IMG/VR virus record: IMGVR_UViG_2563366839_000008
Reading direction: 5' to 3' (one strand)
Source of the DNA: a virus
Taxonomy: Duplodnaviria; Heunggongvirae; Uroviricota; Caudoviricetes
Length of the DNA: 20,624 nucleotides
Each line of letters starts with the position of its first letter. Positions within the stretch are counted from its first letter, which is position 1. The notes below the pieces were generated by a model. The model was not told the origin of the DNA, made no database searches, and was given only the letters and a program-made list of their open reading frames with translations. The translations under genes and the position numbers were made by a program. This document shows positions 4,538 to 18,920 of this stretch, piece by piece.

Positions 4538-4590
4538 GGGCGGCAGAGCAGTCACGGAGTAAAACTGATACCGCCAAACGTCACCAGAAA
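4538..4590 (-). ncRNA. dicF: DicF small RNA (53 nt; antisense regulator of ftsZ and other mRNAs)
   Basis: Minus strand reads TTTCTGGTGACGTTTGGCGGTATCAGTTTTACTCCGTGACTGCTCTGCCGCCC followed by TTTTT, matching recalled DicF including its 3' terminator hairpin (GGCGG/CCGCC). Upstream of dicB as in the Qin dicB operon. Confidence 0.85.
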
Positions 4591-5935: not shown

Positions 5936-6610
5936 TCAGTCTAAGTATTGATGTATTTGTGAAACTTTACCTTTAATGGTGTAACCACCATTCAGTTCGA
6001 TGGGTTTGTAAAGCGGATTCAGTGACAACAGATAGATGTTTGGTCCGTCAATCGCAACTTTTTTTAGTGTTACGTTTGGCGTTCCTTCCAATTGGATTAA
6101 GATTATTTTTCCCACCAGTTCTCTAATGTTACTTGAGCATGGTGTGATCAGCACGGTAGATCCGTCGGGGATGGTTGGGAGGCCGTTAGAGTTTGTCATC
6201 GCATCTCCCTCAACATGCAATAAAAAAGAGTTTTCAGCGGTTTTTGTCATGACATCAACCCAATTCTTAATACCAGGAATCTCGGTTACTGGACAACTCA
6301 TATCCCAATAACCAGCCTGTTCCCACGTTAAAACGGGCAACCGGGCGATGTTGTCACTAATGTAAGGGTACTGATTCAGACGCAGATCATCGGCTTTATC
6401 GTGACCGTCCTTTCCATAAAGAATCCATTCAGGAGATTTGGAAAGCAATTTTGACAGTAGATACAAATTCTCACCGTCAGGTTTTGAAGAGCCATTTTCC
6501 CATTTTGTTACGGATACACGAGATATGCCGATTGCTTTCGCAACCTGCTGTTGGGTTAATCCAACGTCTTTTCGACGATTCCGAATACGTTCGCTGATAG
6601 TGTTTTTCAT
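5936..6610 (-). CDS. CI/C2-like prophage repressor: N-terminal XRE-type HTH plus C-terminal LexA-like S24 peptidase domain with Ala in place of the catalytic Ser
   Basis: N-terminus MKNTISERIRNRRKDVGLTQQQVAKAIGISRVSVTKWENG parallels P22 C2. Ala-Gly cleavage site present (WEQAGYW). S24 motif reads EGDAMT (GCG codon) instead of GDSM; Lys retained in TLKKVAIDG. Divergent from the cro-like gene. Start chosen by alignment to C2; the ORF extends to 6709. Confidence 0.85.
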   Translation of the reverse strand: MKNTISERIRNRRKDVGLTQQQVAKAIGISRVSVTKWENGSSKPDGENLYLLSKLLSKSPEWILYGKDGHDKADDLRLNQYPYISDNIARLPVLTWEQAGYWDMSCPVTEIPGIKNWVDVMTKTAENSFLLHVEGDAMTNSNGLPTIPDGSTVLITPCSSNIRELVGKIILIQLEGTPNVTLKKVAIDGPNIYLLSLNPLYKPIELNGGYTIKGKVSQIHQYLD

Positions 6611-6701
6611 GTAACCAATGTTACTACCAAGTGATGTTGCTATGGTTGACATTGTTATGTAACTATTGTTACCCTTCTGCTCGAAATAACAGGAGAGTTT
6701 T
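6611..6701. promoter_or_regulatory. Divergent immunity promoter/operator region between the repressor and cro-like genes
   Basis: 91-bp intergenic region with repeated TGTTAC/TGTTAT half-sites, a near-palindrome GTTATGTAAC, a consensus -35 TTGACA at 6646-6651 and a candidate -35/-10 pair TTGCTA (6637-6642)/TAACTA (6660-6665) facing the cro-like gene. Exact operators not resolved. Confidence 0.4.
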
Positions 6702-6917
6702 ATGTTCAAAGATGATGTTCTGCGCTATTTCAAAAAAAAGCGACTAGTAGCTGAGGCTCTTGGAATTTCACATGTGGCTGTTGTGCGGTGGAAAGCCGTT
6801 ATTCCCAAACTTCGCGCAATGGAACTGGATGAAATTACTAACAGTGAATTGAAATACAACCCAGAACTTTACAAGAAGCAGGATAGCACCTCAAACGAAG
6901 GAAAGAATGATTCATGA
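6702..6917 (+). CDS. dicC: Cro-like small HTH regulator (DicC / YdaS family)
   Basis: 71 aa with SD CAGGAGAG upstream; divergent from the repressor. Motifs AEALGISHVAVVRW and LKYNPELY resemble DicC/YdaS-type Cro analogues. Confidence 0.7.
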   Translation: MFKDDVLRYFKKKRLVAEALGISHVAVVRWKAVIPKLRAMELDEITNSELKYNPELYKKQDSTSNEGKNDS

Positions 6918-10889: not shown

Positions 10890-11057
10890 ATGACCACTAT
10901 TACCAAAGAACGTATTGAATTGTTCATTAAAAACCCGCTTGAAAACGGGCTTACCCGTGGTGAACAAATGGAACTGGCACGGATTGCGCTGGCATCGCTG
11001 GAAGCAGAGCCGGTTGTGTTCTGGTTTGAAAAATATCAAGAAGGGGCTACGGCATGA
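10890..11057 (+). CDS. Hypothetical small protein, 55 aa; paralogue of the N-terminal part of the next gene
   Basis: Read from sequence: [63 protein letters not shown] upstream. Confidence 0.5.
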
Positions 11058-11398
11058 CGACTTTTACCAGAGAGCAGTTAATAGCTCACGCAGAGGAGAC
11101 TATTGAAGCACAGAGACTGTGCATACCGGGCACAATCGACCATGACATCATCCGCACATATAAGATGGATATTGCTGTTCTGGAAATCGCACTGGTATCG
11201 CTGGCAGCAGAGCCAGCCGGTAAATTGCATGAATACAAACCAGTGGGATATCAGCGTCTGGTCGATGAGTTAACCATGCTGGTAAAGCAGTTAACCTGGC
11301 AACTGAGGAAAGCGAAGCCAGACTGCAAATTACCGGATAAGGCGATGAGTTATCTGGAGCGGAACGGACTGATAAGCGTGGAGGATATTTTACGATGA
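11054..11398 (+). CDS. Hypothetical protein, 114 aa
   Basis: ATG overlaps the upstream stop (ATGA); shares MTTxT(K/R)E and IAL(A/V)SL(E/A)AEP motifs with the preceding ORF. Confidence 0.55.
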
Positions 11399-11478
11399 CC
11401 TGGCCTGAAGCATTAACAACGGTAGGAATTGCGATGGCGGTGGCGCTGGTGGTGTATTCGATTTGCCGCTGGGGATAA
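11395..11478 (+). CDS. Possible 27-aa hydrophobic peptide
   Basis: Read from sequence: [31 protein letters not shown] overlap with the upstream stop, GGAGGA about 10 nt upstream. Too short to be confident. Confidence 0.3.
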
Positions 11479-11689
11479 AAACGGTTTGCGGGAAAAGGAG
11501 AGTTAAGTAGAATTGCAGCGGGTGCTTGAGGCTATCTGTCTCAGGCATGAACACCAAAAGGCAGATAGAGAAAAGCCCCAGTTAACATTACGCGTCCGGC
11601 AAGACGCTTAACATTAATCTGAGGCCATATCTATGCTCTACACACGTAGGTTAGCCTCTTACGTGCCGAAAGGCAAGGAGAAGCAGGCT

Positions 11690-11845
11690 ATGAAGCAGCA
11701 AAAGGCGATGCTAATCGCCCTGATCGTCATCTGTTTAACCGTCATTGTGACGGCACTGGTAACGAGGAAAGACCTCTGCGAGGTACGAATCCGAACCGGC
11801 CAGACGGAGGTCGCTGTCTTCACAGCTTACGAACCTGAGGAGTAA
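11690..11845 (+). CDS. hokD: Hok/Gef-family type I toxin (HokD/RelF-like), 51 aa
   Basis: Translation MKQQKAMLIALIVICLTVIVTALVTRKDLCEVRIRTGQTEVAVFTAYEPEE matches recalled HokD; SD AAGGAG 8 nt upstream. Structured leader at 11480-11689 and a 3' hairpin at 11853-11877. Confidence 0.85.
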   Translation: MKQQKAMLIALIVICLTVIVTALVTRKDLCEVRIRTGQTEVAVFTAYEPEE

Positions 11846-11913
11846 GAGACCCGGCGGGGGAGTAATCTCCCGCCACCTCTGATGTGCCAGGCATCCTCAA
11901 CGCACCCGCACTT

Positions 11914-11935
11914 AACCCGCTTCGGCGGGTTTTTG
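11914..11935 (+). terminator. Rho-independent terminator (hairpin CCCGC-TTCG-GCGGG plus T-tract) after hok
   Basis: AACCCGCTTCGGCGGGTTTTTG; the same 20 nt recur at 13749-13770. Confidence 0.6.
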
Positions 11936-15470: not shown

Positions 15471-16223
15471 ATGAACCTTGAAGCCTTACCGAAATATTAC
15501 TCCCCAAAATCTCCAAAATTGAGCGATGACGCACCGGCGACAGGCTCTGGTGGTTTAACAATTACGGATGTAATGGCTGCGCAGGGGATGGTGCAGTCGA
15601 AAGCACCGCTTGGGTTTGCCTTATTCCTGGCAAAAGTTGGTGTTCAGGATCCTCAGTTTGCGATTGAAGGTCTGCTCAATTACGCGATGGCACTGGATAA
15701 CCCGACATTGAACAAATTGAGTGAAGAAACCCGGTTACAGATCATCCCTTACCTTGTGAATTTTGCCTTTGCTGATTATTCCAGGTCTGCGGCAAGTAAG
15801 GCTCGCTGTGAGCATTGTGCTGGTACTGGATTTCATAATGTATTGCGCGAAGTGGTGAAACACTCCAGAAGCGGGGAATCTGTTATCAAGGAAGAGTGGG
15901 TGAAGGAACTGTGTCAGCATTGTCATGGTAAGGGAGAAGTCAGCACAGCGTGCAGAGGGTGTAAGGGTAAAGGTATTGTCCTGGATGAAAAAAGAACCCG
16001 GCTTCATGGCACGCCTGTTTATAAGGTTTGTGGGCGTTGCAATGGAAACCGGTTTAGCCGTTTACCAACCACACTGGCGCGGCTTCATGTCCAGAAGCTG
16101 GTACCAGACCTGACGGATTATCAGTGGTACAAAGGATATGCAGATGTCATTGATAAACTGGTTACAAAGTGCTGGCAGGAAGAAGCATATGCAGAGATAC
16201 AATTGAGAAAGGTGACAAGATAA
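15471..16223 (+). CDS. Late-gene antitermination protein Q (phage 21/82 QuuQ-type), 250 aa
   Basis: SD GGAGAA upstream. Cys-rich zinc-binding region (CEHCAGTG...CQHCHGKGE...CRGCKGKG...CGRCNG). Followed by a promoter, a short leader and an intrinsic terminator, the classic PR'-qut-tR' layout. Confidence 0.8.
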   Translation: MNLEALPKYYSPKSPKLSDDAPATGSGGLTITDVMAAQGMVQSKAPLGFALFLAKVGVQDPQFAIEGLLNYAMALDNPTLNKLSEETRLQIIPYLVNFAFADYSRSAASKARCEHCAGTGFHNVLREVVKHSRSGESVIKEEWVKELCQHCHGKGEVSTACRGCKGKGIVLDEKRTRLHGTPVYKVCGRCNGNRFSRLPTTLARLHVQKLVPDLTDYQWYKGYADVIDKLVTKCWQEEAYAEIQLRKVTR

Positions 16224-16680: not shown

Positions 16681-16830
16681 TGGCGGTTTCCTGCTGTGAA
16701 AATGGGCGGCTGGTGGGTGTTGGTAGCACCTGCCAGCCATTCGCTCATGCTTACTGGTCACAAGCGAACCACGGCCCACTGCTTTAGCGCAAAAGCAGAG
16801 TGAGCCTACCAGAGTTACGCTTACTGATCC

Positions 16831-17892
16831 ATGAAAAATACTGTAAAAATAAACAGTGTTGATTTAATCAACGCTGATTGCCTGCATTTTATTCAGTCCC
16901 TGCCTGATGATTCCATTGACCTGATTGTTACCGATCCGCCGTACTTCAAGGTGAAACCCAACGGCTGGGACAATCAGTGGAAAGGGGACGAAGATTACCT
17001 TAAGTGGCTGGACCACTGTCTGGCCCAGTTCTGGCGGGTGTTAAAACCTGCCGGAAGCCTTTACCTGTTCTGTGGGCATCGCCTGGCATCTGATATTGAG
17101 ATCATGATGCGTGAACGTTTCAACGTGCTTAACCATATCATCTGGGCGAAGCCGTCCGGACGTTGGAATGGGTGTAATAAAGAAAGTCTGCGCGCATATT
17201 TTCCTGCCACAGAGCGCGTTCTGTTTGCTGAACATTACCAGGGGCCATATCGCGGCAAAAGTGACGGCTATGTAGCAAAAGAAAGGGAACTCAAACAGCA
17301 CATAATGGCACCGCTGATATCGTATTTCAGGGATGCTCGTGCCGAACTGGGTATAACGGCAAAACAAATTGCCGAAGCCACAGGTAAGAAAAATATGGTT
17401 TCCCACTGGTTTGGTGCCAGTCAGTGGCAGTTGCCGAATGAGGCTGACTACCGGAAGTTACAGGCACTGTTTTCCCGTATAGCGGCAGAGAAGTTTCAGG
17501 AACAACAACTGGAACAACCACACCACCAGTTGGTGGCATCTTATGATTCACTGAATCGCAAATATTCTGAATTGCTGGATGAGTTTAAATCTCTCCGGCG
17601 CTATTTCTCCGTATCAGTCTCCGTGCCTTATACCGATGTCTGGATGCATAAACCCGTTCAGTTCTACCCGGGTAAACATCCGTGTGAGAAACCGGCGGAT
17701 ATGCTCAGGCAAATAATCAATGCCAGTAGTCGACCCGGCGATCTGGTTGCTGATTTCTTTATGGGATCCGGTTCCACAATAAAAGCAGCAATGGCGCTGG
17801 GGCGTCGGGCGTTAGGTGTTGAGCTTGAGACAGAGCGGTTTAATCAGACCATCCAGGAAATCAGTATGTTATCAGCAAATACAATTTTGTGA
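16831..17892 (+). CDS. Orphan phage DNA methyltransferase (amino-MTase, beta-class: DPPY motif IV N-terminal, FxGxG motif I C-terminal)
   Basis: Motif IV LIVTDPPY near the N-terminus and motif I DFFMGSGST near the C-terminus; internal HTH-like segment GITAKQIAEATGKK. No adjacent restriction endonuclease gene. Weak SD. Confidence 0.85.
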   Translation: MKNTVKINSVDLINADCLHFIQSLPDDSIDLIVTDPPYFKVKPNGWDNQWKGDEDYLKWLDHCLAQFWRVLKPAGSLYLFCGHRLASDIEIMMRERFNVLNHIIWAKPSGRWNGCNKESLRAYFPATERVLFAEHYQGPYRGKSDGYVAKERELKQHIMAPLISYFRDARAELGITAKQIAEATGKKNMVSHWFGASQWQLPNEADYRKLQALFSRIAAEKFQEQQLEQPHHQLVASYDSLNRKYSELLDEFKSLRRYFSVSVSVPYTDVWMHKPVQFYPGKHPCEKPADMLRQIINASSRPGDLVADFFMGSGSTIKAAMALGRRALGVELETERFNQTIQEISMLSANTIL

Positions 17893-18173: not shown

Positions 18174-18464
18174 ACAACGAATCCTTCTGATCTGCTTTTG
18201 CGGGGCTTTTTTGTATCCGCTCCATGCCCGGCGTATAAGCGGAGGTTGGTCAGTTTTCTAAAAATTGAAATACCTCACAATTCAGCCAGTTAATGGTTGT
18301 TTGTCTGGCGAAGAGTTTGTAAATAAAAAAACGCATGGTGAATCCCCCTAAGCGGCGGGGCGAATCAGCAGTCAGTTCTGGGATAATCGCGGGTTCGTAT
18401 GCTGATGCCGGACTCACCGGGAGGCACCCGGCACCATGCATCATGGTCATCCCCTTGTATGATA

Positions 18465-18488
18465 CCCCTCTCCGGAGGGGTATTTTTT
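18465..18488 (+). terminator. Rho-independent terminator
   Basis: CCCCTCTCCGGAGGGG hairpin followed by TATTTTTT. Confidence 0.55.
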
Positions 18489-18920
18489 GGATAAAAAAGC
18501 CCGCGCTGGGAGGCACGGGCGGCAAGGAATAAAACGTGAAGAAATTTTCACAGGCGCATAATAATCCGATGTTGCCAGATTTTGCAACTGCATCATCTGG
18601 TTATTATGTGAGCTGGAAAATCAGATTCTGTATGGACTGAAGCCATGCTGTTATTTAGGGCCAAAGAGCTGGCTTTTTCCCGCCTTCTCTCCAGTAACGA
18701 TTAATGAGAAAAGAATGAAATGCTTTTCCTGGGGAGGAGGGCAGTAGAAAAAAGAACCCGCCAGCAAAAATATGGGGGATGAACAGCTTTTGCTACTCAG
18801 GTTGCTGGCGGGTATGGTTCTTCATGAAATAAGAATGTTACGCGGTATTTTTAATGAAAATGATAATTATTGTCAATTGGTTGTGCGTATTTTTTCATAC
18901 ATGACTGGTAAAGGTGATTC

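Follow-up and report, generated by a model that had tools for sequence, protein, structure and literature searches.

[quoted passage not shown] The window, that is the whole stretch of 20,624 nucleotides that was analysed, shows 100% identity to DNA of E. coli strain MY1-8 and represents a lambdoid prophage of the Qin-like kind from E. coli; the cassette, on the early-right strand, has the replication genes on one side and Q on the other. Its exact allele is carried by strains MY1-8, 042, ABU 83972 and NCTC86. The cassette is of an ordinary, previously described kind and its hok part is already known; what is mildly new is limited to a conserved, never-annotated 27-codon membrane-peptide gene just 5' of it. 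Because a 631-nt region is repeated at 100% identity across many E. coli genomes, the features of the hok locus and the 27-codon ORF cannot, at the level of the sequence, be a product of chance. All sequence features listed by the initial annotation of this DNA were found where it had placed them, and a tRNA scan gave no match. The coordinates are collected in Table 1.

Table 1. Features of the hok/mok/sok cassette and of the ORF preceding it, in window coordinates.
Feature	Position	Strand	Basis
27-codon ORF, predicted single-span membrane peptide, unannotated	11395..11478	+	ORF list, homologues
Probable -10 hexamer TAGAAT of hok promoter	11508..11513	+	by position
Full-length hok mRNA, about 416 nt, 5' GGGUGCUUGAGG to terminator T-run	11520..11935	+	Rfam start, terminator
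tac (translational activator element), mRNA 5' end, pairs with fbi	11520..11530	+	MFE, covariation
5' leader hairpin, 10-bp stem	11532..11568	+	MFE
Predicted Sok antisense RNA, about 71 nt	11571..11641	-	match to sokW misc_RNA annotated in 933W
Stem-loop, GCC of GCCCC box (ucb/anti-SD, 11575-11579) with GGC (11623-11625) overlapping mok SD	11575..11625	+	MFE
mok Shine-Dalgarno (SD) GAGG, 8 nt 5' of mok ATG	11621..11624	+	sequence
mok frame (70 aa), same frame as hok; product is an N-terminally extended Hok	11633..11845	+	offset, stop as in mokC/mokW
sok promoter, -35 TTGCCT (11676 to 11671), 17-nt spacer, -10 TAACCT (11653 to 11648)	11648..11676	-	homology
Invariant CCUCUUAC box	11655..11662	+	invariant in 26 loci
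hok Shine-Dalgarno AAGGAG, 9 nt 5' of ATG	11675..11680	+	sequence
hok toxin gene (hokD allele), 51 aa	11690..11845	+	Pfam PF01848; RefSeq hokD
TTACGAA motif around Tyr47 codon (TAC, 11828-11830)	11827..11833	+	sequence
GC-rich 3'-UTR hairpin	11853..11874	+	MFE
fbi (fold-back inhibitory element), tac complement	11896..11907	+	MFE, covariation
Intrinsic terminator of hok mRNA	11914..11935	+	7-bp stem (11914-11931), 5 GC pairs, then T-run

The assignment of the toxin gene to the Hok family, already made in the initial annotation, is firmly supported. The product matches the Pfam family HOK_GEF (PF01848) with E=2.9e-23 and 81.6 bits (cutoff 22) as well as phrog_251 (E=7.8e-33), bears the RefSeq name hokD (WP_000813254.1) and is identical to HokD of K-12 (100% identity) and at 47 of 51 residues to HokW. 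The RefSeq annotation records the toxin ORF only and omits mok and Sok. Next to the Shine-Dalgarno sequence of hok, the MFE structure has bases 11681-11690, the last of them the A of the hok ATG, base-paired to 11652-11660. The upstream ATG at 11633 had been recognised before as lying in frame with hok, and this holds, the product being 70 aa long; its dismissal as not mok-like does not hold, since its position is that of annotated mok genes. This ATG is, by all positional indications, the mok start: the 19-codon in-frame extension is the same as in the annotated mokC of K-12 and mokW of phage 933W. The genes mokC (16751-16960) and hokC (16751-16903) of K-12 share a stop codon and are 57 nt apart in length, and mokW and hokW of 933W likewise have a common stop and a 57-nt offset. 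Moreover, 64 of the 70 residues of the mok product are identical to MokW, and the GAGG that precedes the frame is the SD of mok in R1 (PMC9841398). Nearly all of 45 related loci, drawn from Escherichia, Kluyvera, Photorhabdus, Pantoea and Citrobacter, have an ATG either 57 nt (in frame) or 58 nt (+1 frame) 5' of hok. An in-frame mok is thus normal for this clade. With regard to the 3' part of the coding region, A-to-I editing of hokD mRNA (Tyr to Cys) has been reported at a level of 6% (PMC12214031); in the present allele the TTACGAA motif would be the putative position of such editing.

The long structured leader and the 3' hairpins pointed out previously are borne out by a full-length Rfam match, by the folding energy and by the terminator that closes the transcript. 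RF01794 matches 11520-11695 on the + strand over model positions 1-157 of 157 (117.1 bits, gathering score 59); its end coincides with the hok AUG, so that the model describes the sense leader. The 416-nt mRNA (11520-11935) has an MFE of -167.2 kcal/mol (z = -6.9 versus shuffles). Both the hok and the sok promoter were assigned by homology and not by a general consensus promoter scan, which flagged neither of them, its only flagged site being an unrelated one on the + strand at 11608-11637. The -10 hexamer of hok is probable by position, as it aligns with the TATAAT 5' of K-12 hokC and lies 7 nt ahead of the conserved mRNA 5' end; the -35 element, around 11485-11491, is weak.

In the unconstrained MFE structure the two ends of the mRNA are paired: 11520-11525 pair with 11902-11907 and 11526-11530 with 11896-11900. 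Over 26 loci 93% of the cells in this tac/fbi pairing are paired and compensatory changes (UA/CG, AU/GC, GC/AU) occur, the exchange of UA for CG dividing the sequences 18 to 7. The covariation score for these loci was reached by none of 500 shuffles, with 85% paired as compared to 43-52% in slid controls. In the same 26 loci the 5' leader hairpin is 92.7% paired, including three pairs with both sides changed, and the stem-loop at 11575-11625 is 88% paired with four covarying pairs; its mirror on the minus strand is the terminator hairpin of Sok. These elements, the end-pairing and its covariation are results obtained in silico, as is the identity of the sok hexamers to a validated promoter.

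For the remaining elements we use the names ucb and dcb as in PMC9841398, where ucb is the anti-SD (GCCCC box) and dcb overlaps a Sok promoter mutation in R1. Forced pairing of tac with the GCCCC box costs 11.8 kcal/mol in the full-length mRNA and 3.9 kcal/mol after removal of the 3' end; these boxes are invariant and hence yield no covariation signal. We identify the CCUCUUAC box with the published dcb on sequence grounds, because GCCUC, from 11654 onwards, is complementary to the mok SD. The stretch CUCUUAC of the CCUCUUAC box also complements GUAAGAG at 11842-11848, an unnamed pairing that is present in 98.4% of cells and is invariant, without covariation. The 3'-UTR hairpin is 91.5% paired in the 26 loci and, by analogy with the R1 data in PMC9841398, would serve the mRNA after processing as a protective stem at its 3' end. 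Alignment with hok/sok family loci, named in the initial annotation as the way to locate the regulatory elements, yields the sok promoter and fbi as well as putative ucb and dcb elements.

Whether a Sok-type antisense RNA exists had been seen as deciding if this is a regulated killer locus. As far as the sequence goes, a sok gene is present on the minus strand, as indicated by its promoter hexamers and by a hairpin that is the one of sokW. The predicted RNA starts with 15 single-stranded nucleotides as its 5' tail, followed by a long hairpin and UUUU; it spans the SD and the start codon of mok and folds with -28.6 kcal/mol (z -5.4). The hairpin is identical to that of 933W, and all six differences fall at 11626-11639, at or just beside the 5' tail and across the mok start; these substitutions should be harmless for a cis-antisense pair, although they may alter binding kinetics. 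The -35, spacer and -10 of the promoter are likewise identical to those of 933W/Sp5, from which Sok would be expected to be transcribed here as well. A pro-less sokW mutant, which carries substitutions around the -10 as judged from the primers YO-421/422, has lost antitoxin activity (PMC8621323).

How would such a cassette work? Building on homology with hok/sok of R1 and hokW/sokW of Sp5, whose canonical form is described in PMC9841398, we suggest that the weak hok promoter (-10 at 11508-11513) would give rise to a stable 416-nt mRNA kept closed by a helix between tac, at the 5' end, and fbi, close to the 3' end, with the mok SD sequestered in a hairpin. Slow 3' trimming would then take off fbi and let the 5' end refold onto the GCCCC box, after which the mok start would be accessible to ribosomes and to Sok alike. 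The unstable Sok RNA of about 71 nt, transcribed from its promoter within the mok/hok-SD region, would pair with its 5' tail across the SD and ATG of mok, block mok translation and mark the duplex for RNase III. Upon exhaustion of Sok, ribosomes would translate mok in frame with hok and open the hok SD, and the 51-aa Hok would depolarise the inner membrane. Early rightward transcription would meet the sok promoter head-on, which could contribute to release of Hok on induction. Transcription, processing and toxicity of the present allele as well as its biological role are thus deduced by analogy.

The role that we consider most likely is release of Hok on prophage induction, as for hokW. HokW is toxic and is neutralised by sokW, which is transcribed from its own promoter, in a manner that is partly RNase III- and Hfq-dependent; in response to mitomycin C sokW disappears and HokW then appears, in a RecA-dependent fashion, and the phage yield is halved without the hokW/sokW locus (PMC8621323). 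Since the Sp5 locus is situated elsewhere in its own phage genome, an induction-coupled role may not carry over. It is a real, if tentative, possibility that the cassette works but mainly serves prophage stability, through the death of cells from which the prophage has been lost, or abortive infection against other phages, rather than the timing of lysis. The annotators of 933W indeed labelled hokW 'prophage maintenance'. However, in the sole experiment on a close homologue induction and the release of phage were affected (PMC8621323), and a survey saw no enrichment of hok genes near defence systems (bioRxiv 10.1101/2025.08.07.668861); both speak against this possibility.

The 27-codon ORF that precedes the cassette is a unit independent of it. 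Its ATG overlaps the stop of the preceding ORF 11054-11398 in an ATGA junction, and a GGAGG (11380-11384) lies 10 nt 5' of it. By tblastn and blastn we traced it to 91 phage records and to 1610 of 5426 E. coli genomes (about 30% of complete genomes), and E. coli copies number roughly 3000. The homologues of 933W, JLK-2012, VT1-Sakai, PhiR5_1, PhiR49_2 and the lytic phage Av-05 are all exactly 27 codons long, with the ATGA junction and the SD always present though the 5' genes differ. DNA homology in other phages starts at the ATG and ends at the stop codon, pN/pS ranges from 0.17 to 0.8 with the value of 0.17 reached at 60% synonymous divergence, and variable sites are distributed over the three codon positions as 12/10/20, that is with a third-position excess. 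Conservation of length and sequence, the invariable stop/start coupling and mobility as a unit of its own lead us to regard the ORF as probably a real gene for a small membrane protein. The previous proposal of a second small membrane protein is plausible. What modest discovery value the locus has is limited to this unannotated gene, carried by about 30% of complete E. coli genomes and by some 90 phage genomes.

That the ORF is no gene, and is an open frame in a conserved junction between phage modules or possibly the reading of something on the other strand, appears rather unlikely. It is true that it carries no annotation in the phage or RefSeq records inspected, 39 of 40 sampled E. coli rows being without a feature, that one antisense frame is open in all seven homologues as well, that three phage genomes have a TAG at codon 3, and that its sole family match is the weak one to phrog_4612 (E 0.011), the best in PHROGs and a family of unknown function. 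Yet an antisense ORF could not keep the conserved ends, as homology starts at the ATG and ends at the stop, and a mere junction would not readily explain why seven divergent copies have exactly 27 codons and a constant strong SD and ATGA behind differing 5' genes, nor the third-position excess and the low pN/pS. Structured RNA as the reason for conservation of 11385-11490 was considered and rejected, there being no excess structure (z +1.9 and +0.9).

Among described small-protein families the 27-aa peptide has no match in NCBIfam and at best an E of 0.029, short of the cutoff, in Pfam, and its string had no match in the literature searched. Its relatives share the pattern M-x-W-P-E/D-A ... 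Y/F-S-x-C/F-R-W-G. We give an even chance to the broader reading that it founds an undescribed phage family of small membrane proteins, coupled, mobile, missed by annotation pipelines and with a possible link to Hok. Under that reading its translation would be coupled to that of the final gene in clusters of the Ea22/DUF551/EaA type, and it would move as its own unit among lambdoid, Stx and even lytic Vequintavirinae phages; its frequent placement beside hokD/hokW might then reflect a functional link, for instance if it modulates Hok or is its partner in the membrane.

That the cassette itself is an inactive remnant like the K-12 hok copies, its sequence kept and killing or expression lost, is very improbable: most chromosomal hok loci of K-12 are inactivated (PMC12214031; bioRxiv 10.1101/2025.08.07.668861), those of hokA, hokB and hokC gave no post-segregational killing in earlier work cited in bioRxiv 10.1101/2025.08.07.668861, and the consensus scan revealed no strong hok or sok promoter, but the present locus contains no IS element or rearrangement and no truncation of the K-12 type, every regulatory element is intact, the sok hexamers are identical to those of a functional promoter, and many genomes share the same intact toxin ORF. 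Alignment had been named beforehand as a means of exposing a remnant, and with the regulatory elements found intact it does not show the locus as one.

Compared with known systems, the cassette has the same element set and the same presumed mechanism as hok/mok/sok (parB) of plasmid R1, with which tac/fbi covaries, and differs from it in that the R1 locus is plasmid-borne and carries an extra insertion in the leader. As the alignment reads, the mok and hok frames of R1 appear to differ. At the protein level HokW, a close homologue of the present toxin, is only 44% identical to R1 Hok (PMC8621323). The hokC/mokC/sokC locus (gef) of K-12 has the same layout, with an in-frame mok that is 19 codons longer than hok and a sokC that overlaps the mokC start by 9 nt, and conserves tac, the GCCCC box and the CCUCUUAC box. 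Different from the present cassette, however, its toxin shows about 80% protein identity, its Sok hairpin is shorter, and IS186 interrupts its downstream side.

A closer relative is hokW/mokW/sokW of the Stx2 phage 933W and the Sakai prophage Sp5 (AF125520; PMC8621323), with 92.5% DNA identity over 11395-11917, from the 27-codon ORF through fbi. It too resides in a lambdoid prophage, combines an in-frame 70-aa mok with a 51-aa hok and is preceded by the same 27-codon ORF, and its hok promoter is one base apart. The two differ, apart from the substitutions near the Sok 5' tail, in four C-terminal Hok residues (TA.P.E vs VD.S.K), in the terminator, which is unlike beyond 11917, and in location, the 933W locus being at the far map end beside L0139-L0141.

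Finally, hokD (relF) of K-12, located in the relBE-hokD operon of the Qin prophage, encodes the identical 51-aa protein with two synonymous differences only, and shares the 3' UTR, fbi and terminator as well as the downstream neighbourhood (a DUF968 gene followed by the Q-like ydfT). However, homology begins only 14 nt 5' of the hok ATG, where relE abuts, and K-12 hokD is without tac, the leader hairpins, the mok start, the sok -10 and Sok. The initial annotation was correct in stating that relBE is not adjacent here: going by how RefSeq annotates the identical region of MY1-8, relB and relE are missing from the whole window, and in place of the K-12-type relBEF layout, with relE directly 5' of hokD and the relB promoter driving hokD as part of the operon, there is a full hok leader. 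Its view of this absence as an oddity of the present locus is not sustained, as it is the K-12 hokD that is, by sequence comparison, a rearranged, truncated and derived copy, as also put forward in PMC12214031, and the present locus that is the intact form. The K-12-type junction occurs in 1173 of 5426 genomes and the intact leader-hok junction, related hok types counted in, in 4288 of 5426. The value of the hok locus is thus mainly corrective, in that it sets an intact hokD cassette against the truncated reference copy of K-12.

The window (20.6 kb) is a Qin-type lambdoid prophage of E. coli; the chromosome of strain MY1-8 matches it from end to end at ~100% identity, and the matches to a few further genomes are just as good. 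Its gene order, taken from the RefSeq annotation of the MY1-8 region with DicF added from Rfam (see table), together with the strands of the genes, places the hok locus between the replication genes and Q and in the orientation of the early-right operon.

Features of the prophage and its hok/sok locus in window coordinates (933W, Stx2 phage, AF125520; Sp5, Sakai prophage)
Feature	Position	Strand	Source and remarks
integrase, excisionase, exonuclease, dicB		-	RefSeq, MY1-8 region
DicF sRNA	4538-4589	-	Rfam, 76.7 bits; known prophage RNA, adjoins dicB/ydfD
LexA-family repressor	5936-6652	-	RefSeq
cro	6702-6917	+	RefSeq
replication-type HTH protein and many small genes of unknown function		+	RefSeq; between cro and hokD
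27-codon ORF	11395-11478	+	upstream of the cassette
hok mRNA	11520-11935	+	416 nt
predicted Sok	~11641 down to ~11571	-	position transfer from sokW/sokC
sok -10 TAACCT	11653 to 11648	-	sequence, identical in 933W/Sp5
sok spacer	17 nt	-	identical in 933W/Sp5
sok -35 TTGCCT	11676 to 11671	-	sequence, identical in 933W/Sp5
hokD	11690-11845	+	RefSeq
DUF968 gene		+	RefSeq; after hokD
ydfT, Q-like antiterminator	15471-16223	+	RefSeq
methyltransferase, holin, lysozyme, Rz-type genes		+	RefSeq; after ydfT
STnc100-family sRNA	18304-18492	+	114.5 bits; known prophage RNA, between methyltransferase gene and lysis cassette

The hok ORF encodes a Hok/Gef protein of 51 aa (Pfam, E=2.9e-23). The Rfam family RF01794 ('sok') matches 11520-11695 on the plus strand over its whole model length (117 bits), with the hok SD and AUG as the last part of its consensus. 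Because of this strand and this end, RF01794 represents the leader of hok mRNA, in the sense orientation, rather than the antisense RNA; the family is named 'sok antitoxin', yet its hits fall on the strand opposite to the actual Sok gene. The complete transcript folds well beyond shuffled versions (z = -6.9) and ends in a clean intrinsic terminator, which bears out the initial description of a Hok-family gene with a structured leader. The motif TTACGAA around the hok Tyr47 codon (11827-11833), kept in almost all of 26 aligned loci, is presumably the site of the published low-level A-to-I editing (Tyr to Cys) of hokD mRNA (PMC12214031). Near-identical E. coli hokD also occurs in tiny contigs from unrelated genera, Acinetobacter idrijaensis (L034, 275 bp) and Xanthomonas pisi (L039, 431 bp), and the hokD region matches a sequence labelled Actinobacillus phage vB_Apl-pPE4 (H44, 97% over 585 nt); all three probably stem from contaminated assemblies or wrong labels.

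The elements of the mRNA switch were located by folding and by alignment. In the unconstrained MFE structure of the full-length mRNA, 11520-11525 pairs with 11902-11907 and 11526-11530 with 11896-11900, and this predicted end-pairing corresponds to the tac/fbi interaction described for R1 (PMC9841398). Across 26 complete loci, including those of Photorhabdus, Pantoea and Kluyvera, K-12 hokB and an R1-type plasmid copy, 93% of the cells of the tac/fbi helix are paired, with compensatory changes such as U-A in 18 sequences versus C-G in 7. The covariation score of the five-helix set was reached by none of 500 shuffles, and sliding the partners by 1-3 columns lowered pairing from 85% to 43-52%. 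The hairpin of the GCCCC box (ucb/anti-SD, 11575-11579) with the mok SD region (GAGG, 11621-11624) covaries as well (helix 3). Thermodynamic prediction puts the cost of forced tac/GCCCC pairing at 11.8 kcal/mol in the full-length RNA but at a mere 3.9 kcal/mol for an RNA shortened at its 3' end to 11890; these values fit the published model in which trimming of the 3' end frees the switch. The CCUCUUAC box (11655-11662) is invariant and, since it holds the complement of the mok SD, can be identified with the published dcb. Within this leader box CUCUUAC (11656-11662) is complementary to GUAAGAG (11842-11848), which overlaps the hok stop codon, in 98% of the cells of the 26 loci. Both boxes are nearly invariant, and their pairing is absent from the plain MFE structure and appears in the full-length RNA when tac/ucb pairing is enforced.

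The ATG at 11633 had initially been discounted as a mok start because it lies in frame with hok. It does lie in that frame, but the annotated mokC and mokW are built in just this way: K-12 mokC (16751-16960) and hokC (16751-16903) end at a common stop codon, with mokC 57 nt longer, and the same holds for mokW and hokW of 933W. The 70-aa mok product of the window is identical to MokW at 64 of 70 positions. Among 45 related loci from Escherichia, Kluyvera, Photorhabdus, Pantoea, Citrobacter and others, most have an in-frame ATG 57 nt upstream of hok; in the remainder it lies 58 nt upstream in the +1 frame, a shift accounted for by one extra base. In-frame mok is thus normal in this clade, different from K-12 mokB/hokB and the Rac-type locus, where mok is out of frame with hok. 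As both arrangements occur, the frame of mok relative to hok can vary freely, whereas the mok start keeps its position, which fits the view that translation through the mok region matters and not the Mok peptide itself.

In 933W, sokW is annotated as a minus-strand RNA overlapping the first 9 nt of mokW, and K-12 sokC overlaps mokC in the same manner. The Sok predicted from these positions (71 nt) has a fold in which a single-stranded 5' tail of 15 nt precedes a long hairpin and a terminal UUUU (-28.6 kcal/mol, z = -5.4), which is the architecture of Sok RNAs. The sok promoter, which it had been suggested to find by alignment, was assigned by homology. A 'pro-less' sokW mutant of Sp5, made with primers YO-421/YO-422, had no antitoxin activity, and sokW in trans partly restored growth (PMC8621323); by our reading, these primers replace bases around the sok -10. 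The Sok region of the window differs from that of 933W at six positions, all within 11626-11639, a stretch that spans the mok start and lies in or next to the 5' recognition tail; the hairpin and promoter hexamers are unchanged. Since Sok is cis-encoded, it stays complementary to its own mRNA. It looks as if paralogous hok/sok loci have diverged in recognition specificity, and such divergence would limit cross-talk between them.

What might such a cassette do in a prophage? HokW is toxic and is neutralised by sokW, partly via RNase III and Hfq; upon mitomycin C treatment sokW disappears while hokW mRNA stays, HokW next shows up in the inner membrane, dependent on RecA and ~1 h ahead of endolysin, and deletion of the hokW locus halves phage yield (PMC8621323). 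The window locus has the same parts and would therefore be expected to act alike, and hokW/sokW-like behaviour on induction is our best guess for its function. The cassette is sense-oriented to transcription of the early-right operon, and the stretch from 11300 to the hok promoter yielded no terminator, so that read-through after induction would run head-on into the sok promoter; speculatively, this could be a route to the loss of Sok. Stabilisation of the prophage and exclusion of other phages are possible alternative roles beside a function on induction.

The 27-codon ORF is a unit separate from hok and looks like a real gene. DNA similarity between the window and 933W begins exactly at its ATG; other phages share only the upstream gene and the ORF, with similarity stopping at its stop codon (matches H65 and H66), further phages share only the ORF at 75-80% identity (H73-H81), and Rac-type, PPompW and P1-like hok loci lack it. 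All seven divergent copies compared (window, 933W, JLK-2012, VT1-Sakai, PhiR5_1, PhiR49_2 and the lytic Vequintavirinae phage Av-05) have exactly 27 codons, a good SD and an ATGA stop/start overlap with the preceding gene, whichever gene that is. In the window this is the ORF 11054-11398, whose C-terminal half (residues ~63-114) matches the C-termini of PHROG families 660, 924, 8171 and 30109 and appears to be a module shared by proteins with varied N-termini. The peptide follows the pattern M-x-W-P-E/D-A ... Y/F-S-x-C/F-R-W-G, synonymous divergence reaches 0.6 against 0.10-0.27 for non-synonymous, and variable sites distribute 12/10/20 over the codon positions; excess RNA structure was found on neither strand of the region. 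A caveat is that every copy leaves one antisense frame open as well. Residues 6-24 form a strongly hydrophobic stretch (mean Kyte-Doolittle 2.2) between Glu5 and Arg25, which suggests a single span with N-out, C-in topology, so that the earlier proposal of a second small membrane protein gains support as a prediction. The ORF is present in 91 phage records, always near full length (tblastn), and in 1610 of 5426 E. coli genomes (blastn), including ~100-kb plasmids; copies lie, for instance, at 1501-1584, 601-684 and 602-685 of the segments L006, L010 and L008. In the Shigella phages POCJ13 (L015 301-309) and 75/02 Stx (L009 601-609) and in phiSTEC1589-Stx1c (L017 301-309), TAG replaces the conserved Trp at codon 3 and the frame continues downstream; these copies could be pseudogenes or something else. 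No annotated feature underlies the match in 39 of 40 sampled RefSeq rows, the phage records inspected do not annotate the ORF, and NCBIfam, Pfam and PHROGs gave no significant match of the peptide to a curated family, which makes it a minor but genuine annotation gap.

But why is this hokD not next to relBE? The RefSeq annotation of the matching MY1-8 region shows neither relB nor relE anywhere in the window, in agreement with the initial observation. The 11690-11845 product and K-12 HokD are identical in sequence, yet the K-12 locus resembles the window no further upstream than AGGAGAAGCAGGCTATG, 14 nt ahead of the hok start, and has relE upstream of that point. K-12 hokD retains the hok SD, coding region, fbi and terminator, whereas tac, the leader hairpins, the mok start, the sok -10 and Sok are gone from it. 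Of 5426 complete E. coli genomes, 1173 have the relE-hokD junction and 4288 a window-like leader-to-hok junction, related hok types counted in (920 records at >=99% identity); some genomes have both. From the lost elements and these counts it follows that the arrangement is intact in the window and derived in K-12, whose hokD is a truncated copy, which answers the puzzle. This agrees with a passage of PMC12214031 which, citing Pedersen and Gerdes 1999, states that the K-12 hok copies except hokB are inactivated via insertion elements or genomic rearrangement. Taken together, the locus is the well-known hok/sok system, correctly spotted at the outset; its defining features that sequence analysis can test are present, with the alternative tac/ucb and SD/dcb pairings as putative ones, and the cassette is of an already known kind without novelty. 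Judged by its sequence, it is closely allelic to hokW/sokW, which has been characterised, and its toxin is identical to K-12 HokD.
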